Below, in pieces: positions 2,902 through 15,146 of a stretch of DNA of 64,000 bases. Source of the DNA: an uncultured Gemmataceae bacterium (lineage in GTDB: Bacteria; Planctomycetota; Planctomycetia; Gemmatales; Gemmataceae); contig CAVVPN010000011.1 in NCBI GenBank assembly GCA_963750165.1, positions 2,144,001-2,208,000 on the forward strand. The letters are read 5' to 3'. Each line of letters opens with the position of its first letter. Positions within the stretch are counted from its first letter, which is position 1. The notes beneath the pieces are model-generated. The model did no database searches, had not been told where the DNA came from, and saw only the letters and a list, made by a program, of their open reading frames with translations. Made by a program: the position numbers and the translations under genes.

Positions 2902-3163
2902 TCACGAGCCGACGGCCCGCTCGAAGCAAAACGCGAGCAGCAGTTCATACTCGCGCCGCTGCACGCGCCGGCACAGGTCATGGCACGGCGCCGCCTCCTC
3001 ATAGGACGCCTCGCACAAATCCACAAACGCCAGTGCATCCCAGGCCGCCTGCCGCACCAGGAACGCGGCCGGCGGCGGCGCGTCCGCCGCGAGTTGTGCC
3101 GCCTCCGTCCGCAGCGGCTCGAACACTGGATGCTTGCCGACGCGCCGGAACCAGTATTTGCTG
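2902..3163 (-). pseudogene. 3' half of a conserved hypothetical gene interrupted by the integrated element
   Basis: Encodes (N)SKYWFRRVGKHPVF…WDALAFVDLCE…EYELLLAFC, which continues …HRREPDFW from 15146-14848 in frame (561 nt total). Confidence 0.9.
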
Positions 3164-3685
3164 TTCCCCGAATGAACAAGCGGGGTACGCCGTTCAAGTG
3201 CCCCTCGCCCTTGCCTAGAATAGTGATTGCCCCCTTGGCCGACGCTGCCGTTTCCATCGCCCACGTCGCGTTCTGCCGCGTCCGGGCGGGGGAACTCGGC
3301 CCCGGATACGGCGGGCGGCACGGGCGGTTCCTGGGGCAAAGCGGTAAGATAGAGGCAGCGGGACGCCGGGCCTCATGAACCCGGCCGGCCCTGCCTGGCG
3401 TCGTGGCCGTCTCCTGGACGCGGCAACTGGGCAGGGCACCTCCCGCATTCCAGGAGACAATGACATGTCCGACACACCCACCGCGGCCAGCGCCTGTGCC
3501 CGCGTTCCCTCGCTGAATGGCACGCCGAACTGACGTTCAAGCGCGAAACACTGGTTGCGAACATCAAGGCCGCGGATTCCGGTCTGCGCGGCGGGAGGGG
3601 CAACCAGGGGATACAACTCGACACCTTCCAGAAGTGCGTTGCCTGGCTCGCATGGCCGACGCAAGGGGGCATTGTTGATCGTTAT

Positions 3686-4213
3686 ATGCTCCCCCGGTTG
3701 CGGGATACGCTACTGCAATTGTGCATGGAACACAACCTCGACCTGCCCTCTTGGCACGGCGAACCGCAAGACGACATGACCGCCCTGCAAATGGTCAACG
3801 GTTGCCTGGCAGCAATCGAGCGCGCTATTGGACGCACGCAGCCCGACACGTCCGTTGCAGTGAAGGCGGTATCGACCGCCAGCGAGCAACCACGCAAGTT
3901 ACTCACTGGCTGGCTGGAGATCGCCGCCGCCCTGGATATGAAATACGCGGACTGCGACAAGATCAAGAGCCTGAACAAACGATTTGAGGGGCCTATTGGT
4001 AACAGCGGCAAGGGCACAAGCCCGATGGTCTACCGCGATGTCCTCATCCAGTGGTGGAATCGGCTGGCAATCCAGGAAGAGGAACTGGCCAACCAGCGCG
4101 AGGGTGCCAGGCTCACCGCGGAAGCCCAACACTCCTACGGCAAGAGCGGCACGGCGGCCCCGGAAATCAACGGCGAAGTGAAGAAACGGCGTAGCGACCG
4201 GAAACCTACCTAA
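3686..4213 (+). CDS. Putative DNA-binding regulator (C-terminal HTH-like)
   Basis: LTGWLEIAAAL…PMVYRDVLIQWW resembles excisionase/MerR-like HTH. The frame is open back to ~3464 and an RBS/ATG sits at 3465 in another frame, so the gene may be longer with a frameshift. Confidence 0.5.
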   Translation: MLPRLRDTLLQLCMEHNLDLPSWHGEPQDDMTALQMVNGCLAAIERAIGRTQPDTSVAVKAVSTASEQPRKLLTGWLEIAAALDMKYADCDKIKSLNKRFEGPIGNSGKGTSPMVYRDVLIQWWNRLAIQEEELANQREGARLTAEAQHSYGKSGTAAPEINGEVKKRRSDRKPT

Positions 4214-4237
4214 ACCTCCCGGAACCTGCTAAAACCT
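4203..4237 (+). promoter_or_regulatory. Four AACCT direct repeats at exact 10-bp period
   Basis: AACCT starts at 4203, 4213, 4223 and 4233, upstream of the 4284 operon. Confidence 0.6.
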
Positions 4238-4283
4238 CTCTGTGCCGCGATCCTCCCCATGAATTTGTGAGGAGGACGCGGCT

Positions 4284-4475
4284 ATGTTTCTTTCCCCCGA
4301 AGAACTCGACAGGCGCATGGGGTGGAGGCCCGGCCGGGCCGAGCAACTGGCCCGCCAGCGACGACTGCCCTATATGTTGCTCCCAGATGGATCAATTCGG
4401 TTCGACTGGACCGAGATTGAACCGCTCATTGTTCGCATACCGGCTGTCCTCAATTTAGAGAGGGGGACGCCGTGA
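4284..4475 (+). CDS. Small excisionase-like HTH protein
   Basis: 63 aa, GAGGAGG RBS, LSPEEL…LARQRRLPYMLLPDGSIRFD pattern of HTH_17/Xis proteins. Confidence 0.7.
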   Translation: MFLSPEELDRRMGWRPGRAEQLARQRRLPYMLLPDGSIRFDWTEIEPLIVRIPAVLNLERGTP

Positions 4476-4747
4476 ATGAACCCCTCGACTCGCTGCACGT
4501 CCCGCCGATCCCCCTGCTGCCCGTGGCGGTGGTGGAGGACACCACTGCCCGACCCGGCAACCTCACGACTGCGCTGGCGTCGCTGGTCCTGAGCCGAGCG
4601 CGCGAGCACTCTGCGCCACGGCGAGCGGGCCGAGCCGGTAGGCGAGGCCGACGACCGCTGAAGCAAATAACGGCCGCAGCGTCGGGGCGGGTACGCCACG
4701 GCCGTCCTAACACACTACCCGCATTCTACCCCAGAAAGGGGTGCCGT

Positions 4748-4978
4748 ATGAAGTTGCGTAGCAAAAACGGAGACAGATCGCGCCTGCCTTTTGGCCGCTA
4801 CAGAGGACTTCCACTTTCCAAGGTGCCGCGGGAATACCTGATGTGGGTGTTACGGGCGGTCAAGTTGTCCGAGGATCTGCGTGTCGCCGTGTCCGAGGCT
4901 TTGGCATGTCGGGATATGTTCCCGCCCCTGCCGCCCGATACCCGTGTCGTGAGGGAGGGCCGGCACCATGCCATCTAG
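4748..4978 (+). CDS. Small DUF3820-like protein
   Basis: LPFGRYRGLPLSKVPREYLMW motif. The frame is also open from 4472. Confidence 0.65.
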   Translation: MKLRSKNGDRSRLPFGRYRGLPLSKVPREYLMWVLRAVKLSEDLRVAVSEALACRDMFPPLPPDTRVVREGRHHAI

Positions 4979-7082
4979 CCCACACACCGCCACCGTCAAG
5001 GCGGCAGCGCGTCTCCGTAGTCTTGGATTCGGTATCTGCCGAATACTGGCCAAGGAGAAAACCCCGAACTACAAGGGCTGGACGCGGGCCAGTTTGGAGG
5101 ATGGCGACTTCGAGCAGTTCCGCTGCGCGAACATTGGCATCCTCGGCGGTGCCATCAGCGGCAACCTCGTCATCGTGGACCCCGACCGGCCCGATGTCCG
5201 AGCGGAGGCCGTCAAGCGTCTGCCACGTACCATGACGGACGGGCGACCGTCGAGTGGTCCGGGGCACCTCTACTACCGCGTTACTGACGTTCCGGCGTGG
5301 GCGACCGCCGGCACCCAGGTTGCGGGTGGCATCGGCGGGCCAAGGATTTTTCACTTCGCCGATGGCAATGGACTTCCGATAGGACTGGACTTCCTGGGGA
5401 CGGGCGCGAAGGCGGTTTGCCCGCCGTCTCTCCACCATTCCGGCGAGCGCCGTTGCTGGTTTGTCGAGCCAGAACACATCGTCACCCTTCCCTACCTCGA
5501 CCTGTGGGCCTTCGTCAAGCAGCTTGCAAAGGACTTCGGTGCCGCCAACGCCGACCGGGAATGTGCGCGTCCAACTGTTGCCGTGACAGGCGAGCGGCGG
5601 ATTTTTTGCGACGCAGTAGGGACGCACATCGTCAAGCGTGCCATCGCCTACCTGGCGGCATGTCCGCCGGCCATCAGTGGGCAAGGTGGGCACAATTGCA
5701 CGTTTGCGGTCGCGAGGGCCATCGTGTGGGGCTTCGACCTCGGTGCCGATGCCGGTTTCGATTTGTTGCAACAGTTCTACAACCCGCGCTGCGATCCACC
5801 GTGGTCTGATGCCGAATTGATGCACAAGTGCGAGGACGCCAACTGCACAAAGTTCGATAAGCCTCGGGGGTACTTGCTGGACGCGCCGTCTCAAGTGTTG
5901 AGTGTTGATTCAACAGGTCAACAGGACGGGGCGTTGCAAGGTCCGGGCGACGACACGTTGGACTGCCCAGAACTGGCCCGCGACCCGAGTCCGCTGCTGA
6001 CCATCGGCAACGACCTCGCTGCCATCGGCATCGTTGACGAATCGGACAGCGCGAAGCTCGTTTACCTAGCCTACACCTCTCGGGTGCTGGAAGACCCAGC
6101 AGCAATCGTAGCTCGCGGCGTCAGGGGGACCGGCAAGTCAGTCCTGCTGACAAAGACGGCGACGCTGTTTCCCCCCGAGGTCAAGATTGAGGCGATGCAG
6201 ATGACCAACGCGGCGTGGTTCAACACGCCGGATGATTTCTTCAAGCACAAGGTCTTCATCAGCGGCGAGCGCAAGCACTCAACGACCGAAGAAGCGAAGG
6301 ACGCCGGCGCTTGCCTCCGGCAACTCCTGAGCGAGAAGCGAGTCAACCGCGGCGTGTCCGTCTACGACAAGGAGTCGAAAGCCTGGTCAACGGTATGGGT
6401 CGAGAAGGCCGGCCCGGTTGCCTATGCGGAGAGTACCACTGCCCGGTCAATCTTCGAGGAAGACCTTGACCGGATGCTTCAGATCTACACTGACAACTCG
6501 GAGGAGCATAAGAGGAACGTCCTGGACGCTATTGGTAGCAAGTACGAACCCGACTGTGTGCGGCCAGACCTCGATGCCATCATCAAACGGCACCATACCT
6601 TCCAGCTTTGGTTGCAGAAGTTCGCGCCTATCCGTGTTGGGGTTCCCTACCACCGGGCGGTTACGTTGATGCTTCCCGTAGACGGGGCAAGCGTGTTTCG
6701 CACGACACAACTACTCTTCACGATCATTCAGACGGTTGCTCTGCTTCACCGTCAGCAGCGCGAAGAGAGGAATGGTTATCTCATCGCAACCCTGGATGAC
6801 TACGCCGTTGCTCGACAACTACTGATACCACCACTGAGCACGGCTATCGGTATTGGCGAGTGGCACGGAGGCGCGGAGAAACTGAGGAAGGTGACGAAGC
6901 CGGGCGAGGAGTTCACGACGCCGCAGGTGAAACAGGCTCTTGGATTCGGGCACGACATGGGGCCAAGCAGGCTCCTCAACGGTCTGGTCGAAGCCGGCAT
7001 GATCGTGCGAACGCGAGAGCAGAGCGGGCGGACACCAGCTACGTACAAATGGGTAGATGGCGCGCTGCGCGGTTGCTGGTGA
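4968..7082 (+). CDS. Bifunctional primase/polymerase fused to a P-loop ATPase/helicase-like domain
   Basis: NIGIL…IVDPD, GHLYYR and CPPSLH prim-pol motifs; AISGQGGHN…NPRCDPPWS primase C-terminal motif; Walker A GVRGTGKS. Confidence 0.88.
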   Translation: MPSSPHTATVKAAARLRSLGFGICRILAKEKTPNYKGWTRASLEDGDFEQFRCANIGILGGAISGNLVIVDPDRPDVRAEAVKRLPRTMTDGRPSSGPGHLYYRVTDVPAWATAGTQVAGGIGGPRIFHFADGNGLPIGLDFLGTGAKAVCPPSLHHSGERRCWFVEPEHIVTLPYLDLWAFVKQLAKDFGAANADRECARPTVAVTGERRIFCDAVGTHIVKRAIAYLAACPPAISGQGGHNCTFAVARAIVWGFDLGADAGFDLLQQFYNPRCDPPWSDAELMHKCEDANCTKFDKPRGYLLDAPSQVLSVDSTGQQDGALQGPGDDTLDCPELARDPSPLLTIGNDLAAIGIVDESDSAKLVYLAYTSRVLEDPAAIVARGVRGTGKSVLLTKTATLFPPEVKIEAMQMTNAAWFNTPDDFFKHKVFISGERKHSTTEEAKDAGACLRQLLSEKRVNRGVSVYDKESKAWSTVWVEKAGPVAYAESTTARSIFEEDLDRMLQIYTDNSEEHKRNVLDAIGSKYEPDCVRPDLDAIIKRHHTFQLWLQKFAPIRVGVPYHRAVTLMLPVDGASVFRTTQLLFTIIQTVALLHRQQREERNGYLIATLDDYAVARQLLIPPLSTAIGIGEWHGGAEKLRKVTKPGEEFTTPQVKQALGFGHDMGPSRLLNGLVEAGMIVRTREQSGRTPATYKWVDGALRGCW

Positions 7083-7130
7083 TACCGACGGTTGAGGAAG
7101 TGGAAATGGCCGAGGCTGAGCTGCGATCAA

Positions 7131-7311
7131 CCTAACAGCCTAACTTAGCTAACAAGGGGTGCCTTTGCCTAACTAACTAACAGGGGGTATATACCCCTGG
7201 CACATGAGGGATGAGTTACCTAACAACCTAACTTGTCAAACAACCTAACAAGATCACTGGTGACGTTCTCCCTGAAGGGGATGGGGTATGTCCCCCTTGT
7301 TAGTTAGTTAG
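7131..7311. repeat. AT-enriched CTAAC repeat region with a 29-bp inverted repeat, candidate replication origin
   Basis: About 9 CTAAC on + and 3 on -. 7169-7197 and 7283-7311 are near-perfect inverted copies. Lies directly after the prim-pol gene. Confidence 0.7.
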
Positions 7312-7820
7312 ACAATTCGCTCCGGAGGACTACCACCGGGCACCGCGACGGTTGCGCGAGTTGATGGGGCAATGCTCATGCAACCTTGCTGGCCTGTTGA
7401 GGAAGTAACCGTAACACCCTGACCTGGGCCGGGCGGTCAGAGACGAGTACCTTAAAGCAACAACGAAAAGGGGCGGACTGGCCCCCATGCCCCAACCGCT
7501 TTCCCGCCGGGAGCGGCGGTATGGTATCCTAACTGGTGCTGGAAACCGATTGACGTTGTGAGAATGACAGCAAGGTAGCTCGCCGGTCAGGTCATGCCAG
7601 CGTCCAGGACGACCAATCCCGGACGCCAAGAGTGCAAGACTTTCCAGCAATCTTGCGGATTGAAGGCGTGAAACCAACCGTGCGTAGGGAGCCGCGCGAA
7701 GGAACTAGCCCCCGGTGCGCCCGAGGGGGGTCACAATACGCGGGAACATGCCGGGGGGAGAGTGGAACGCCCCCTACCCTGCGGTCAGGGCACGAGGACG
7801 GCCAGCTCGTCGTCGCCAAG

Positions 7821-9649
7821 TTACTTGCTGGGCGAGAAAACCAACACCTCCACGGTATTCAGGAAGGGCACGGTGCCTCCTCCGCCGATGGCATAGATGC
7901 GACCATCGCGACCTGTAGTCGCCGCCAGTTGACCACGCACGGTAGGCATGTTTGCGACGGGAGTCCACTTGTTGGTGCTCGGGTCGTAGGCTTCCACAGG
8001 GTTGAGATTTTCGCCTTCGGGATGTCCTCGAATGGCGTAGATTCGGCCATCCGGACCCATTGCGGCTGCAAGCGCATTACGCGCTGTTGGCATGTTGGCA
8101 ACGGTAGTCCAAGTGTTAGTTTCGGTGTCATAGGCTTCCACAGTTTTGAGACGCTTGCTGTTGATCCCGCCGATAGCAAAGATGCGACCATCCGGCCCCG
8201 TTGCGGCTGCGAGGTAGACACGGACTGTGGGCATACTTGCGACAGTAGTCCAGGTGTTTGTGCTCGGGTCGTAGGCTTCCACGGTATTAAGAGGCACCCC
8301 GCGTTGACCAGTTCCGCCAATGGCGTAGATTCGACCATCGGGGCCGGTGACGGCTGCCAGCCCATGACGCGCGGTCGGCATGGGGGCGACCGCGATCCAC
8401 ATGTTGGTACTTGGGTTGTAGGCTTCTACGATATTCGCGCCGCCAACGCCACCGATGGCATAGATGAGATTATTCGGACCTAATGTGGCGGCCAGGTGAT
8501 TGCGAGCGGTGGGCATGGGGGCCGCTTTGGTCCACTTGTTGGTATTTGGGTAGTAAACCTCGACGGTGTCGAGGCGGCCGCTGGCGTCCTCTCCGCCGAA
8601 GGCGTAGATGCGACCATCCGCCCCCGTTACCGCAGCCAGCAAGATACGCGCGGTAGGCATGTTGGCCAGACTTTTCCAGGTGGCCGGCTGAATTCCTTCA
8701 GTTTTTTTATCAAGGATGTTTTTTATCGATTCCTTGCCCGGCGCAATCTTGTCCGTTCCCACAGCGGGCTTGTCCTTCTTCCTGTCCGGGTCAGTGTCCT
8801 TCGGCCTGTCGTCGCCGCGCGGACCCTTCGCGGCCACCGGGGGGCCGTCCGGCGTCTTCGGCTCCGACCTATTGCGGACGACGAGGACGACCACGACCAC
8901 CAGCGCGACGGCCGCGGCGCCCCCGCCAGCCAGACCCATCCCGGTACGCCCGGACGCGACGGCCGGCGCCTCTCCAGGATCGGCTCCTCTTCGGGGGGAA
9001 GGGGCACGGAGAGGATCGTGCCCCGGGGAGGCGGTGGAATCTGGATGCGCTGCCCGCACTTGGGGCAGTTTAGTTTCTGGCCTGCAATCCGAGCGGGCAC
9101 CGTCATCGCGGTCTTGCACACCGGACACGCGAAACGAATCGGAGTCGCCCCCGATGCTCGCGGCCCCGCCGGCATCGGCGACAGCGGTCTGTCGGCGACC
9201 GGCGGCGAGTTCAATTCGCCCGGCTAGAAGCGCGGCAGGTCGGGCGGCAAAAACGGCAGCAGATTCTCGGCGCTGCTCAAGCGCAGGTCGGGCGGCACGG
9301 TTCGGCCTTCGGGGTCGGTCGGCCGGTACAGGGTATGGCGAACCTGGACCTGCACCTGGATCAAGTAGGTAGTCAACTTCCGCTTGACCGCGGCAGGCTG
9401 TCCGGCGGCCTCATCCTGGATGGCGGCCTGCACCGCTGCCTCGACCCGCTCCGCCGTGGCATGGGCCAGCGCCTGGAGTTCTTCGCGCGGGTCCGCTTCA
9501 GCCGGATTCTGCTTCTTCCACCGCTCCCAGACATCGGCACCGAACTCAACAACCTCGATCAGCGCACCGCCACCGGGTACGAGAGCGACGAGGAATTTGC
9601 CGATGCGGTTGACGGCAGCCTCGACACAACAATTCAGCAGGGGGAACAT
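7821..9649 (-). pseudogene. Multi-domain membrane protein: helical N-domain, Zn ribbon, TM, six Kelch repeats; broken by an in-frame TAG (9224-9226) and a frameshift near 8925
   Basis: …LPRF*PGELNSPP continues in frame to CPVC…CPKC. A shift in a G run leads to TM AAAVALVVVVVLVV and repeated GPDGRIYAIGG…VEAYDP…W…MPT Kelch units. Confidence 0.75.
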
Positions 9650-9762
9650 GGGTCACTCCGCGCAGGCTCGAGGGCGCGTTCTCCGTGATCCGAGGAAGTA
9701 GGTGCCTCACGAGGTACACACCGATTGAAAGCTGCGGATGGCGCATAGGCCGCTAAGTTGCC

Positions 9763-10869
9763 TCAAGATGACGCTGCTGCTGGTTTGTGGCGATAGCGCC
9801 GACGCCATGCGTAGCCGATCATTCCCACCGCACCGATGCCGAGAAGGGTTAGTGAAGAGGGTTCAGGGGTGGCGGCTGCGAACTGGTATTCAAAGGCTTG
9901 TGTTTGACCGTTGGTGTCGATGTAGTATCCGACGGCTGTGCTGCCGTCTATCGCCGCCAACCCGGTGGTGCCTGTCGTGCCGGGGTAGTCGAGGGTGATG
10001 TAGGTTGAACCATCGTAGATAAAGCCATGCGTTCCGGTCGCATCCTGGAAAGAGCCAACCACATCGTTGCCGGATACAGCGGCCGGCTGGGTCGAAGCTG
10101 CGCCGGGAACGCTGATTGTGGAGTAAGTCGAGCCGTTGTACGAAAACCCTTGGAAGTTGCCGCTGCTGTCTTTGTAGTAGCCAACTACTGTGCTCCCTGA
10201 AATGCCATTGGCTTCGGTATAGTTCGATCCGGGGAAATTGAGAACGCTATAGGACGAGCCATCGTAAAGAAAGCCGTGAATGTCACCTAACGCGCCGCTG
10301 CCGGCGTCGCTCACGAATCCCACGACCTTGTTGCCAGAGATTGCGGTCGCAATCGTATCAAACTCCCCTGGGACGGCGAGCGTCGTGAATGCCCCTGAAT
10401 TGTAAATAAATCCGCTGTATTGGCCAGTGCCAGGTTGAGAATTGCCGATAATGTTGTTGCCGGAGATGCCGGTAGTTTCGGTGTAGGTCGCACCCGGTAC
10501 GTCGATGGCGGTATAGGTCGATCCGTTTATTGTGTAGAGAAATCCGTGGAAGTTAAGGCTGGCGTCCTCGTAAATACCGACGATGTTGTTACCGGAGACG
10601 CCCCGCAGGGTCGTACCTGGGATTTGCGTTTGGTTTGGGAGTGTCACTGAGCCAGGGTAATTGATCGTCGTGTAGGTCGAGCCGTTGTACAAGAATCCTT
10701 GCGTAGTGCTACCGTTGGAATAATAGCCGACCACGTTGTTGCCAGAGACGGATGTCGCTTGCGAACTGACCGATCCCGGTGGATTGATTTGGATGAAACC
10801 AGCAGATGCCTCGGTGGCTTGCAAAAGAAGCGCGAAGGCCATAGCAAAGGCGAAAGGTGTATCTTTCAT
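9763..10869 (-). CDS. PEP-CTERM surface protein with beta repeats
   Basis: Signal peptide, repeats of GISGxxVVG…HGFLYDGSTY…VPG, C-terminal TPEPSSLTLLGIGAVGMIGYAWRRR. Alternative TTG start at 10902. Confidence 0.9.
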   Translation of the reverse strand: MKDTPFAFAMAFALLLQATEASAGFIQINPPGSVSSQATSVSGNNVVGYYSNGSTTQGFLYNGSTYTTINYPGSVTLPNQTQIPGTTLRGVSGNNIVGIYEDASLNFHGFLYTINGSTYTAIDVPGATYTETTGISGNNIIGNSQPGTGQYSGFIYNSGAFTTLAVPGEFDTIATAISGNKVVGFVSDAGSGALGDIHGFLYDGSSYSVLNFPGSNYTEANGISGSTVVGYYKDSSGNFQGFSYNGSTYSTISVPGAASTQPAAVSGNDVVGSFQDATGTHGFIYDGSTYITLDYPGTTGTTGLAAIDGSTAVGYYIDTNGQTQAFEYQFAAATPEPSSLTLLGIGAVGMIGYAWRRRYRHKPAAASS

Positions 10870-11252
10870 GGTGCTACCAAAAAAGTAGGAGCGACGAACC
10901 AAAGCCGCTCCTCAAACCCGACCAAGGGTGCTACAGAACGGACCCTGGCCGCCGCCCCTTTCGGGGCGTGGCTTGGTCCGCTTCTGTAGCTTCAAGAGCG
11001 TTTCCGCTCAGGTTGGTCGTTTGAAGAAGCGAAGCCATGCTCAACGCATGGTTCAAATTGTCAACGGGCCTTGTCTGGCCCGGTCAATGCTCTGGCACTC
11101 TCCGTCGTCCGAGGATGCATGAACAGCAGTTGGCCCAGCGCCAACCGCACCACCTGGGAGTCTACACGAGGCGCGCGACCGACGCTAGATGCCTGAACGG
11201 GAATTTGCGAATCGACAAGCGGCCGGGGTGGGCAGCCCCGACCGATGCCGTC

Positions 11253-11567
11253 TTACGCGACCGATGCCCCCGCGACCTCCGCGAACGCCAGGACGCGGCG
11301 AATGCGGTTGGCGGGTACGTCGTTGACGCTGTACCACAGCCCTTTCCTCGACCGCCGCAACCAGCGCCGCGGCACGTTCAACTCCAGGACCACCACCTGC
11401 TCGACTCGACCGCCGTGGCGCTTGACCGTGTGCAGGGTTGCCCAGCTGGACTTGTTCAGCGAGTGCAGCCATACCACCTTGAGCCTACCCTTGCTCTTGC
11501 AACAGAGCAAGCCGCCCTTCAGGATGCTGGCCAGATTGCGGGCGAGCGTTGCGTGGCGAATCTTCAT
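11253..11567 (-). CDS. Minimal Tpt1/KptA-like ADP-ribosyltransferase-fold protein
   Basis: RHAT…NLASILKGGL…VWLH…RHG…VVLELNV…VPANRI follows the Tpt1 NAD-binding lobe pattern. Confidence 0.65.
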   Translation of the reverse strand: MKIRHATLARNLASILKGGLLCCKSKGRLKVVWLHSLNKSSWATLHTVKRHGGRVEQVVVLELNVPRRWLRRSRKGLWYSVNDVPANRIRRVLAFAEVAGASVA

Positions 11568-11630
11568 GGCCGGTGCCCTCCTGTAGCAAGCGGGGCGGGG
11601 TTGTGGTCCCCCGCCCCGTGGTTGCGTTGG

Positions 11631-11943
11631 TTAGAGATTTCCGGCCGCCTGCAACGCCGCGAGTCCCGAGGCGTGCTTGCAGTGTTTCCACTTCAAGAAC
11701 CCCTTGCACTCGCAACTGTGCCCGTCCGCAGTTCAGGTTGACGTGGTACTCGTCCTCGCTTCCCACCTTCGACACTCGGAAACCGCTGCCGAAGTCGCTG
11801 GCCACCTTCGCCACAAGGTAGCGGTCGAGTTTGCCGTTCTGGCGAATCTCAACCACCCCTGACGAACCCGGCTCGCTTCCGATGGGCAGGGCCAGCTTGA
11901 TCGTCCGTTGACGCGCCTTGCGGGTTTTCGTTACCGTAGCCAT
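11631..11943 (-). CDS. SWIM zinc-finger protein (one frameshift near 11730)
   Basis: After YHVNLN the shifted frame reads DGHSCECKGFLKWKHCKHASGLAALQAAGNL* (CxC…CxH). Confidence 0.75.
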
Positions 11944-12138
11944 TGCGATTCCTCTTCTTCAGGAATTGCCACGGGCCGGGGTGTTACAAGCACCGCCGGC
12001 CCACTTTCGTTTCGGACCCGTTTGCCTCCTCTCCGTTTGGCGTGGCGGGAACCAGTCCCCCGCGCCCGTGTCCCGCTCTCCCTCCCGGTTCCCCGGTTCC
12101 GAGCGGCATCTTGTCAAAGAACTGGGCTTGATTGCCTG

Positions 12139-12537
12139 TTACTGCTTCTTCTTGCCGCCCTTAGCCGCCGGCTTGCGCGTCAGGCCCAGCGCCTCCAACT
12201 CGTCGTCGCTGAACGCCGCCAACTTGGCGGCGACCGCCTCCTTGGTGACCGGTGCCGCCTTGGTGCCGGTGCTGGCGCTGTAGCCGTCGAGCTGGGCGGC
12301 TCTGCTGATGGCGGGGTCGTATCCGATGGCCAGGATCCACCCCTTCACCTCACCCTTAATCGCGATCTCGAACGCGCGAGTGTTCTTGGGCGGGTTGGCG
12401 GGTTTGGCTGCCAGCGCCTCGTCGCGCGTGGCAAACAGCTGCTTGGGCAGCTCATCCCGAGTGGTGGCGGTGGTCTCGGGGGCCGTGGCCTGGTCCGTTG
12501 CCGTTGTGTTCGTGGTCGTGTTCGTCGTGTCGGTCAT
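12139..12537 (-). CDS. Hypothetical protein, first gene of the leftward operon
   Basis: 132 aa, RBS, coding-like codon usage, Thr-rich N-terminus and basic C-terminus. Confidence 0.7.
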   Translation of the reverse strand: MTDTTNTTTNTTATDQATAPETTATTRDELPKQLFATRDEALAAKPANPPKNTRAFEIAIKGEVKGWILAIGYDPAISRAAQLDGYSASTGTKAAPVTKEAVAAKLAAFSDDELEALGLTRKPAAKGGKKKQ

Positions 12538-12617
12538 GGTCGTTCCCCTTTTCGTAAACCGTCGGGGCCGGGCCGGGCGGGAAACCCCCGCCCCGTTGCC
12601 CGCGCCCATCTACCCTA

Positions 12618-12722
12618 ATGATACCGAAACTTCGGTAGTGAGTCAAGTCCAGTAGTACCGAAAATTCGGTATTCCGCAACCCGAATACCGGACTTGAATT
12701 ACTACCGAAGTTTTGGTACAAT
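12618..12722. promoter_or_regulatory. Divergent sigma70 promoters with three palindromic operators
   Basis: TACCGAA-NN-TTYGGTA at 12622, 12656 and 12703. Left promoter TTGACT-17-TATCAT; right promoter TTGAAT-17-TACAAT. Confidence 0.85.
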
Positions 12723-12746
12723 GGGCGGCGAAAGGAGGGAAACCCC

Positions 12747-13001
12747 ATGACCACGTTCGGCGAGAAGTTGAGGGAACTACGGGACGCGGCCGGGATGACG
12801 CAGACGGCGCTGTCAGAGGCCGCGGGTGTACCCATCGGCACAGTGCGGGACTACGAGCAGGGGGTGCGCGACCCGCTGCTCTCTAACGCCCAGCGCCTGG
12901 CGAAGGCGCTGGGCGTCAGTCTCGACGTGTTCCCCCCGACGGTGCCGCGACCGAAGAAGGGGAGAGGTAAGGCGAGGGGCAAGAAGGGGGGTGGGAAATG
13001 A
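12747..13001 (+). CDS. XRE-family HTH repressor
   Basis: FGEKLRELRDAAGMTQTALSEAAGVPIGTVRDYEQGVRDP; GGAGG RBS. Confidence 0.92.
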   Translation: MTTFGEKLRELRDAAGMTQTALSEAAGVPIGTVRDYEQGVRDPLLSNAQRLAKALGVSLDVFPPTVPRPKKGRGKARGKKGGGK

Positions 13002-13156
13002 TTAGCGCGAAGGACGAGTTGCACCACCTGGCGGACTGCATGTCTGAGGAGGAGTGCGAGCGGGCATTTGAGCTACTGCGGCAGGCCGGGATGACCGGAC
13101 CCCAAGACGATGACGAGCCTGACGAGCCAACCACTGTGGATGAGGACAAGCAATGA
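12998..13156 (+). CDS. 52-aa acidic protein between repressor and recombinase (not in the ORF track)
   Basis: MISAKDELHHLADCMSEEECERAFELLRQAG…; ATGA start/stop overlaps with both neighbours. Confidence 0.6.
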   Translation: MISAKDELHHLADCMSEEECERAFELLRQAGMTGPQDDDEPDEPTTVDEDKQ

Positions 13157-14923
13157 GCACCACGAACGGCAACGGCAAGCTGGACCTCGACCGGGCTTGC
13201 CTCTACCTGCGCAGGTCCACCGATGACCAAGTGCAGTCCATCGACCGCCAGCGCGGCCAGACCACCGCCTACGCCGCCGCCAGGGGCTACCGCGTCATCC
13301 GGGAATACACCGATGAGGGGATCGCCGGCGACGTGTTCGACCGCCGCCCCGACTTCCAGGAGATGCTCGCCGCCGCCGGGCGGGGCGAGTTCGAGGTCAT
13401 CGTCGTCGATGAGCCATCTCGCCTGTCTCGGCAGAACCCCATTGATCTAATCGAGAAGGTCATCGCCCCCTTGCGGCGTTCGCGCGTCCGCATCGACACC
13501 GCCTCCAAGGGGGTGCTCGATTACGAGTCGCTGGCCGGCATTATCATGATGACGGTCCACGCCCACAAGTCGGAGGACGAGTCGCGCGACCTGTCCCGCC
13601 GCAGCCTGGGCGGCATCACACGGCGGGCGCAAGCCGGCCTCTGGTTCGGCTGGATACCGCCCTTCGGTCTGCGGATCGTCCGCGAGACGGACCCCGCCTC
13701 CGCCAAGGTGACGGCGCGAAAGTGCATCCACGGACCCGATGAGGAGGTGAACGCCGTCCGCTTCATCTTCGACGCCGTAGCCAACCGGGGCTGGTCGCTG
13801 CGGCAAGTGTGCCGTGAACTGGAGGCCCGCGGCGTCAAACCGCCCGCCGGCAACGGCCGCGGGGCGAACAAGGCCGGGGGCAGCTGGAACCCCGGCACCG
13901 TGCGGAAGATTCTCACCAACCGCAAGTACGTCGGCGACCTGACATACAACGTCACCCACCAGGGGAAGTATTCTTTCCTCTCCGGCGGTCGCGTCGAGGC
14001 GCACGGCGTCATCAACCGCCGTGTCAGCCGCAACCCCGATGAGGACATTGTTGTCGTGCCTGTCCCGGACCTCATCCTGCCGCTGATCGACCGCGACACC
14101 TTCACGCGCGCCGGCGTCGCCCTGTCCCTGGCGCAGAAGCGGACCACCCCCGGCACCGCCGCCCGCTACCTGTTCACTCACCTGCTTGTCTGCGGTGACT
14201 GCGGCTCGTTCATGCGCGGCCAGCCCGACCACGGCCACAAGGGGTACATCTGCTCCCGGTACAAGGAGTATGGCAAGTGCAGCCGCAACACCGTGGGTGA
14301 AGAACACCTCAAGCGGTCACTGCTGACGGCCCTGCTCGACGACATCCTCAACCCGAAGCGGCTCGACGAGGTAGAGGCGGAAGTGGAACGCCGTATCAAG
14401 TCGGAGCGCTGTTCCGGCGAGGCGGATCGTATCCGGCGCCAGGTCGCCGCCCTCGATAAGGACATCGCGCAGGGCAACATCAACCTCGCGCTTGCCCGAA
14501 GACCGTCACCCCGGCGTCATCAACCAGTTACGTCTGTGGGAGGGCGAGCGAGCCGGGCTGCTGTCCCGCCTGAACGACTTGGAGCACGGAGCCGAGCACG
14601 AAAAGGCGGTGCTGGCCGAAGCGCGCCGGCAGCTGTGGCGTCTGCGGGAGGCACTGGAGGGGGACGACGAGGAGGCGCAGGCGACCGTCTTGCGTGAGGT
14701 GGTCACGAAGGTTGAAGTCCGCTTCACCCACGAGCGGACCCACGGCAAGCGCAGCCCCACGGGCGAGGGCCGCGTCCTCAGCCGGGCGGCCGGGGCGGTG
14801 CTGTACGTTCGGCCCGGCCTTGGTTTATCCCACTTGTTTACTTCGGATTCCAGAAATCCGGCTCGCGGCGGTGCATCAGGCCGTGCCAGTAACTGCCGGT
14901 CGGCGTCGCGATGTCCTGGCTGA
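13153..14923 (+). CDS. Large serine recombinase/integrase (frameshift near 14490)
   Basis: YLRRST catalytic motif, DEPSRLSR, recombinase domain (ILTNRKYVG), Zn ribbon CGDCG…YIC, coiled coil. Adding GC at ~14490 gives NLARLPEDRHP and joins ORF 14492-14923. Confidence 0.95.
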
Positions 14924-15146
14924 GAGCGTGGCTTTCGTCCAGGAAATTGTGGTACAGCCACAGTCCCGCCAGGCAGCATCGGGCCATGTCGCGGTCGTGA
15001 ACGCGGTGCGGCGCCAGCAGCGCTTCTGGCGTCAGCGTCGCCAGGCGGCCGCGCATGGCTTCGTCCGGCTGTCCGGGGCCGAGCGGGCAGAGTTGTTCCG
15101 GCGTCAGCAGTTCGGTAAGCGCGGCGGGCAGTGGGATGTCGGGCAC
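14848..15146 (-). pseudogene. 5' half of the conserved hypothetical gene interrupted by the element
   Basis: CLAGLWLYHNFLDESHALSQ…SYWHGLMHRREPDFW, then an element-derived stop at 14838-14840. Confidence 0.9.

Follow-up and report, generated by a model that had tools for sequence, protein, structure and literature searches.

What becomes of an integrase when the site at which it recombines lies inside the end of its own gene? This question is raised by a 64,000-nucleotide stretch of DNA from an uncultured Gemmataceae bacterium (GenBank assembly GCA_963750165.1, contig CAVVPN010000011.1, positions 2,144,001 to 2,208,000 of the forward strand), here called the window, in which an integrated mobile element of 11,684 bp (~3166-14849, one copy of the core being counted) splits a conserved host gene and carries the gene of a large serine recombinase (LSR) at its right end. 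The initial annotation of this locus placed the attachment (att) site within the integrase gene and proposed that the excised form of the element gains a tail resembling the degradation tags added by transfer-messenger RNA (tmRNA), so that the integrase would be stable when integrated and degraded when excised. Our analyses, which extend to homologous integrases from other genomes and metagenomes, bear out an exchange of the integrase C-terminus upon recombination as a trait of the whole family, whereas the consequence of this exchange for the enzyme can be given only as a set of more or less probable readings.

The split host gene and the attachment site

On the minus strand, the N-terminal piece of the host gene, to the right of the element, ends ...HGLMHRREPDFWN, and the C-terminal piece, to its left, reads NSKYWFRRVGKHPVFEPL... 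down to the stop. The host protein has a match in 156 of the 201 genomes searched within the same order; its open frames elsewhere are mostly ~160-260 amino acids long, and the window copy has 107. In 11 intact homologues fetched from other genomes, the protein crosses the junction without a break (...HG(L/I)MHRREPD(F/Y/A)xN(A/S)KYW(F/V/W)R(R/H)VG...). Because these intact homologues, which have no match to a Pfam or NCBIfam family, bridge both window pieces exactly, the window holds a host gene split by insertion. A small integrative, plasmid-like element, with a Prim-Pol protein, an Xre regulator, and an LSR, thus sits in a conserved host gene.

At the left end of the element, the plus-strand frame at 3168-3218 reads PNEQAGYAVQVPLALA and then TAG, whereas at its right end, the integrase reaches HLFTSDS at 14831-14851 and continues in the same frame as RNPARGGASGRASNCRSASRCPG to a stop at 14921-14923. 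Both tails, with their coordinates, are as first annotated. The element-side arms of the att sites form an imperfect inverted repeat of ~25 nt, in which ~19 of 25 positions match as counted on the alignment, and we infer that the exact crossover dinucleotide is TT. This dinucleotide falls in the D-S codons, which leaves 16 codons to the stop in the circular form. The site of the circular element, attP, overlaps the last ~20 codons of the integrase gene, and the C-terminus of the protein is encoded by the P' arm and seven further codons. In the P arm lies the coding sequence of the most conserved C-terminal motif of the family, GLGLS(C/H)LF, and in the P' arm that of a mirror-image NEQxG; the bases of both arms would thus be under constraint as protein-coding sequence and as DNA site at once. 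The two junctions show that the circular element would encode a full enzyme with a 16-residue tail, for which integration would swap in residues read from the antisense strand of the host gene.

It is of note that open tails are frequent by chance in DNA of this composition (64-66% GC), where 77% of random frame starts in the window stay open for at least 16 codons and 6.5% of random read-throughs end in [AVLI]A. Open tails alone therefore mean nothing, and the signal lies in the homologues.

The integrase family and its exchanged C-terminus

The integrase has the resolvase catalytic domain PF00239 (4.7e-23, residues 16-163), followed by PF07508 (2.3e-16) and PF13408 (4.8e-12). Across 32 sequences of the family, S22, R20, and other columns of the catalytic domain are invariant or nearly so, and Cys 347, 350, 367, and 376 are invariant. 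Structural comparison was made with an AlphaFold2 model of the homologue P0017, which is 65% identical, in place of the window protein. This model matched 9dxh_A (Z 17.6, 482 residues aligned, root-mean-square deviation 10.4), 9y66_A (Z 16.8), the Listeria-type LSR 4kis_A (Z 16.1), Bxb1 (9iu2_A, Z 14.8), and phiC31 (Z 13.8), with Foldseek E-values against solved LSRs from 2e-22 to 1.8e-18, and shows long helices at 382-516. We take 9dxh_A and 9y66_A to be SPbeta-type integrases, the titles of these PDB entries giving no enzyme name. Sequence identity to the solved LSRs is only ~17-20%. Domain matches and the predicted fold together identify the window enzyme as a member of the LSRs, and catalysis of integration and excision is its presumed family function. 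SPbeta-type, Bxb1, phiC31, and Listeria LI/A118 integrases have the same three-domain architecture and coiled coil as this family and likewise recombine at short attP and attB sites whose inverted repeats are imperfect. Insertion of LSR elements into protein-coding genes is common, according to excerpts of a large LSR survey (PMC10083194).

A word-indexed search returned 108 homologues, ~100 of them at 35-80% identity, and tail classes were counted on the 100 closest. The anchor RPGLG, kept in 79 of these, is followed in 26 by a host-antisense tail of the window type, ...(S/N/R)PARGG(A/G)... (22 found by regular expression and P0033, P0056, P0091, and P0003 by eye, P0003 being among 21 sequences missed by the anchor expression). 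These tails run to ...GGA or ...PG, set by where the host sequence gives a stop, and comprise 23 residues in the window and 11 in some relatives. In P0013 and P0029, the tail (...SGSRRC..CQ) stems from another frame of the same host gene. Locus L110 (820-900), DNA from a 54% identical relative, likewise has the same host gene and insertion point with a tail in the other frame, ...KSGSRRCTRPCQ, so that the same attB is read in two frames by different family members. Eleven homologues stop no more than 12 residues after the anchor, and the remaining tails presumably come from other targets. Circle-type tails, on the other hand, are found in four, P0043, P0046, and P0052 by regular expression and P0017 by eye. 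Comparison of close relatives places the change at the expected point; P0017 shares its sequence with P0019 and P0028 up to the predicted crossover and diverges thereafter, as does P0046 from P0038 and P0011, and P0052 from P0051, P0063, and P0006. By these protein comparisons, an attP inside the integrase 3' end with exchange of the C-terminal tail is a family-wide arrangement, in agreement with what was first proposed for the window alone, and the integrated tails are best described as unconstrained junk. As for the DNA of relatives, viral contigs yielded one 37% identical relative (L026), genome contigs only relatives at 25-32%, and metagenome contigs short pieces from close relatives (L107, L108, and L110) and otherwise distant ones; of all these, only L110 was informative.

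The circle-form tail shows a different pattern. More distant LSRs were reached by a profile search against 1.84 billion representatives. Many of these relatives, at 28-38% identity, share a C-terminal pattern in which (C)LF-T/S is followed by a few variable residues, in many cases by (N/S)EQxG, by hydrophobic-x-hydrophobic-P-(F/L/I), and finally by an end rich in Ala, for example IAIPFTLTAA, VVVPFELA, LRLPFTVQAA, LALPLVVA, or LKIRFKVA, with longer forms such as ...TIPFSxxDLxx...A. Because this distal block lies outside the inverted repeat, it must be held at the protein level. In the AlphaFold2 model of P0017, a linker at 559-570 with a predicted local distance difference test (pLDDT) score below 50 precedes a strand at 574-578 in a block of pLDDT ~70, and in that of P0180, a linker at 575-593, also below 50, precedes a strand at 597-602 with pLDDT 65-78; in both proteins, the disordered linker is encoded by the attP core. 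Comparison of sequences and of predicted structures thus shows the circle-form tail to be the conserved native C-terminus, in which a predicted disordered linker leads to a short strand and then to an end rich in Ala. A word search with the C-terminal residues 460-606 of P0180 matched only P0252, and a tblastn search of the tails against host-gene loci, confounded by the window's own locus (L014), served as a cross-check only.

Possible roles of the exchanged tail

The explanation that we prefer, while giving it an even chance at best, is that the tail is a state-dependent module, integration altering the enzyme and excision restoring it. With attP overlapping the 3' end of the integrase gene, the circular element would make the native enzyme, and integration would replace the conserved terminal module with host-antisense residues. 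The enzyme of the integrated state would then be an altered integrase without a functional C-terminal module, as in Mx8 IntP/IntX, and its activity, possibly also its lifetime, would depend on the integration state until excision brought the native enzyme back. As to what the module does, a structural or activity switch like that of Mx8 IntP/IntX seems at least as likely as a degron.

Several points weigh against a state-dependent module. The LSR must still excise with a junk tail, and the tail is therefore not essential for catalysis. The circle-type tails of the relatives come from protein records only, and the first ~9 tail codons lie in the P' half-site, so that conservation of NEQxG may be a constraint on the DNA. 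The predicted strand has only moderate pLDDT and no visible pairing partner. In the alignments obtained, solved LSRs extend only to about residue 553-569 of the P0017 model and leave the terminal strand uncovered, although the lack of an aligned counterpart does not prove that none exists. The tail statistics call for similar care. A rule requiring hydrophobic-x-hydrophobic-P-[FLIV] within the last 22 residues and before the last three was matched by 16 of 222 full-length proteins, about four of these matches (P0058, P0109, P0133, and P0204) being doubtful. Motif tails end in A in 9 of 16 cases against 27 of the 206 others (13%; Fisher p = 1.5e-4), a p-value that overstates the independence of sequences that are all kin, P0180 and P0252 being close. 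The corresponding counts for [AVLI]A are 8 of 16 and 9 of 206; among the long open reading frames (ORFs) of the host, the shares are 10% for a terminal A and 4.2% for [AVLI]A.

This excess of terminal Ala is also what would be expected if, as initially proposed, the circle-form tail were an ssrA-like degron, such that ClpXP or Tsp would destroy the excised integrase and spare the integrated one, giving a proteolytic control of directionality. The window tail ends ...PLALA, and the host tmRNA tag, AEPQFSMAA, with which a comparison was proposed at the outset, ends in MAA. The host has two clpX genes above the family cut-off. Among the long tails that extend past the PF block, six of seven end in A as read from the alignment (KTA, QAA, RAA, ACA, LAA, and QVA), and this persistence of a terminal Ala across tail lengths suggests that the free end itself matters. 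There is a precedent in BPs, whose Int is C-terminally tagged and, according to part of PMC3694055, stabilized by one C-terminal substitution. The distal tail is, however, predicted in the P0017 and P0180 models as a docked strand and not as a free tag. Ala ends, whose recurrence among relatives had been put forward as a test, are in excess in the protein records of the motif tails, but of the five close circle-type tails, two end otherwise (P0043 in PNE and P0046 in LAG). Moreover, the integrated tails of eight homologues also end in ...GGA, so that a terminal A does not cleanly separate the two states, and chance read-through in the window supplies [AVLI]A ends at the rate given above. The direction of LSR recombination is normally set by a recombination directionality factor (RDF) and the coiled coil, as described in excerpts of PMC3783163 and PMC5499577, and the stability of Int alone would not set it. 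A degron of this kind is compatible with the sequences but appears unlikely to us, and the particular polarity, stable when integrated and degraded when excised, together with a control of directionality, is pure conjecture. One of the two clpX genes lies at C11:2134469-2135719, ~9 kb left of the window, and the other on contig C3.

At the other extreme, the exchange might be a neutral by-product of a compact element in which attP overlaps a dispensable gene end, both tails being tolerated and the swap regulating nothing. No constraint is evident on the length, frame, or sequence of the integrated tails, 11 homologues make do with a stop shortly after the crossover, open read-throughs of 16-23 codons are the chance expectation in this GC-rich DNA, and nothing in the solved LSRs, as far as they could be aligned, corresponds to the tail strand. 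What this reading does not readily accommodate is the distal tail, which is outside the inverted repeat and yet conserved, in its pattern, predicted strand, and Ala-rich end, down to 28-38% identity; such conservation would scarcely arise unless selection acted on the protein, and a neutral by-product is for this reason disfavored, if somewhat less improbable than the degron. A still more speculative combination would make the C-terminal module a built-in sensor of the integration state, the native excised enzyme being fully integration-competent and, owing to its Ala-rich end, short-lived, and the integrated enzyme, deprived of the module, stable but altered; recombination would then rewrite the very enzyme behind it and bring a control of direction or timing, in addition to that of an RDF or in place of it. 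We hold this to be quite improbable.

Known systems offer analogies to the state-dependent module that we prefer. Mx8 Int and the BPs-type integrases are tyrosine recombinases, and an SSV-type integrase gene is split in two on integration. In the window enzyme, only serine recombinase domains were found and none of the tyrosine type. The attP of Mx8 is situated within int, which on integration receives a new 3' end and then yields an enzyme that is altered but not inactivated (PMC6070905, in a passage summarizing Tojo et al. 1996 and Magrini et al. 1999); an excerpt of the Islander paper (PMC4383910) also names this arrangement. Mx8 IntP/IntX and the window element thus have in common an attP within the int coding sequence and a recombinant gene with a new 3' end, whereas Mx8 targets a tRNA-linked attB and the window element a protein-coding gene. 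The window enzyme being a serine recombinase, we regard its system as an analogue, and not a member, of the Mx8 IntP/IntX type. BPs immunity, as described by Broussard and Hatfull, resembles the window in that attP lies in an ORF and integration changes the C-terminus of an element protein, and excerpts of that paper (PMC3694055) confirm the precedent as it had been invoked for the window: attP crosses the repressor gene, and both Rep and Int bear degradation tags at their C-termini that render the system responsive to proteases of the host. In BPs, however, Int keeps its tag in both states, whereas here, only int is rewritten. The Xre gene of the window element (12747-13001) lies 1.8 kb inside the element, and because this repressor-like gene is not crossed by the att site, the system is not of the BPs immunity type. 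The fusellovirus integrases of the SSV1 type also have attP within the integrase gene (PMC4383910, in part); the SSV1 enzyme is an archaeal tyrosine recombinase and the window enzyme a serine recombinase, of which, unlike in the SSV type, only the last 16 codons are exchanged. No report of an LSR whose attP falls within the 3' coding end of its own gene came up in our searches of the literature. PMC6511857 was considered as such a precedent and rejected, the matching phrase in the excerpt seen there concerning transcription inside a gene. The large LSR survey uses the LSR-to-att distance as a filter, and the parts of its text retrieved do not discuss an attP-in-int layout (PMC10083194).

The window copy, its element, and what the exchange may mean

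In the window itself, the integrase gene is not continuous (see the table). The frame that begins at the ATG (13153) departs from the homologous reading at 14488-14491 and stops at 14695-14697, inside the element. At the departure point, this frame reads DIAQGNINLA and then junk, the other frame reads RLPEDRHPGVINQLRLWEGERAGLL, and homologues read DIAQGNANLARLPEDRLPGVIAQVR (DIAQGNANLARLPEDRLPGV) in a single frame. The coiled coil is thereby interrupted, and the part that reaches attR is in a frame separate from that of the ATG. The earlier statement that the recombinase has no stop inside the element fails for the sequence as assembled, since only the shifted frame reads through attR. As assembled, this copy of the element is probably a fixed relic, unless the frameshift is an assembly error, and because the integrase is frameshifted upstream of both tails, the toggle is moot in this copy.

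It might be argued that the two frames reflect programmed frameshifting or an assembly error in place of decay, in which case the gene would be functional and the toggle live in this strain. The shift does lie in a short CG run, a second integrase relative on contig C2 likewise changes frame, which could indicate indel errors in the assembly, and the metagenomic homologues P0062, P0080, and P0093 go off frame close to the same place. The zero frame, however, runs for 68 codons past the shift with neither a nearby stop nor a slippery heptamer seen, ~80 integrase homologues are in a single frame, and other long genes of the window, among them the ORFs of 1134 and 835 amino acids, are uninterrupted. 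Programmed frameshifting in particular carries low weight, and a functional two-frame gene on either ground seems doubtful. The C2 relative (C2:16378-18146, loci L002 and L003), from the same genome and 34-51% identical, changes frame close to the N-terminus, which would mean either that both copies are in decay or that there are indel errors in the assembly. The homologues P0007, P0059, P0060, P0062, P0066, P0080, and P0093 run into Arg/Pro-rich junk within the coiled-coil region, P0062, P0080, and P0093 doing so within ~15 codons of the window frameshift position; such a cluster might reflect a site prone to slippage, repeated inactivation, or errors in sequencing.

Table. Features of the integrated element, its att sites, and the interrupted host gene (window coordinates)
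Feature	Position	Strand	Basis or remark
attL core TTCC; probable crossover dinucleotide TT at 3164-3165	3164..3167	+	Host to the left, element to the right
attR core TTCC; TT at 14848-14849	14848..14851	+	L110 has the same arm and TT on the same host gene
P arm of attP, also encoding integrase GLGLSHLFTSD	14822..14847	+	Inverted-repeat alignment with 3166-3194
P' arm of attP, also encoding the ~9 first circle-tail codons (PNEQAGYAV)	3166..3194	+	Inverted-repeat alignment
Predicted circle-form integrase tail, 16 codons and TAG, kept at the left end of the element	3168..3218	+	Homologous to P0017, P0043, P0046, P0052, and distant tails
Integrated-form tail RNPARGGASGRASNCRSASRCPG and stop, host-gene antisense, 23 codons	14852..14923	+	Same tail type in 26 of the 100 closest homologues
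Integrated mobile element, ~11,684 bp	3166..14849	.	Flanked by halves of a host gene continuous elsewhere
Host gene N-terminal piece, conserved protein without known function	14852..15146	-	Matches in 156 of 201 genomes
Host gene C-terminal piece	2902..3165	-	NSKYWFRRVGKHPVFEPL... to stop, continues intact homologues
Xre-type helix-turn-helix (HTH) regulator directly 5' of the integrase	12747..13001	+	PF01381 1.6e-16; PHROG transcriptional regulators/repressors
52-codon very acidic ORF, overlapping HTH stop and integrase start	12998..13156	+	ORF list; without family match
Prim-Pol-type replication protein, 704 amino acids	4968..7082	+	PF09250 1.3e-09; phrog_1156 DNA primase 4e-10
Kelch-repeat cargo protein	7821..9128	-	PF01344 2.4e-69
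PEP-CTERM cargo protein	9763..10902	-	PF07589 5.5e-07
Integrase N-terminal 446 codons, ATG frame: resolvase, recombinase, and zinc-ribbon domains, start of coiled coil	13153..14490	+	PF00239, PF07508, PF13408
Frameshift site in short CG run, two bases short of homologues	14488..14491	+	Comparison with homologues
Integrase C-terminal part, shifted frame (ORF 14492-14923): rest of coiled coil, last zinc-ribbon hairpin, 23 host-antisense codons, TGA	14489..14923	+	

Besides the LSR, the element encodes a Prim-Pol protein, an Xre-type HTH regulator, and Kelch and PEP-CTERM cargo, the cargo having a GC content of 0.545-0.59 (6000-8000 and 10001-11000) against ~0.65-0.70 around it. Pfam and PHROG scans of the element ORFs found no virion genes, and most of these ORFs match neither database. 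Among the small ORFs of the left end, filtering by GC content at third codon positions did not separate genes from non-genes. The acidic 52-codon ORF (12998-13156) is a possible candidate for a cofactor or RDF. A 149-codon minus-strand ORF without family match (3215-3664) converges on the circle-form tail, the two stops overlapping in one CTAG. The window also contains part of a second LSR of a different subfamily, a 711-codon frame on the plus strand (2-703) that begins left of the window (C11:2142568-2144703) and ends ~60 nt within the 3' end of a minus-strand TPR gene (643-1497); it may be another integrase reading across its own att site.

Serine integrases have found wide use in genome engineering, and control of their direction is attributed to the coiled coil and an RDF; an enzyme dependent on the integration state is documented only for tyrosine systems such as Mx8 and BPs. 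To this, the window copy, its integrase being frameshifted, adds mainly a clean and well-bounded example of a protein-coding target. From a practical point of view, such integrase genes, when called on integrated copies, end in junk and lack the native C-terminus, and cloning from a prophage sequence would give the wrong protein. If it is true that a whole clade of serine integrases loses a conserved C-terminal module on integration, their activity or lifetime could depend on the state of integration.

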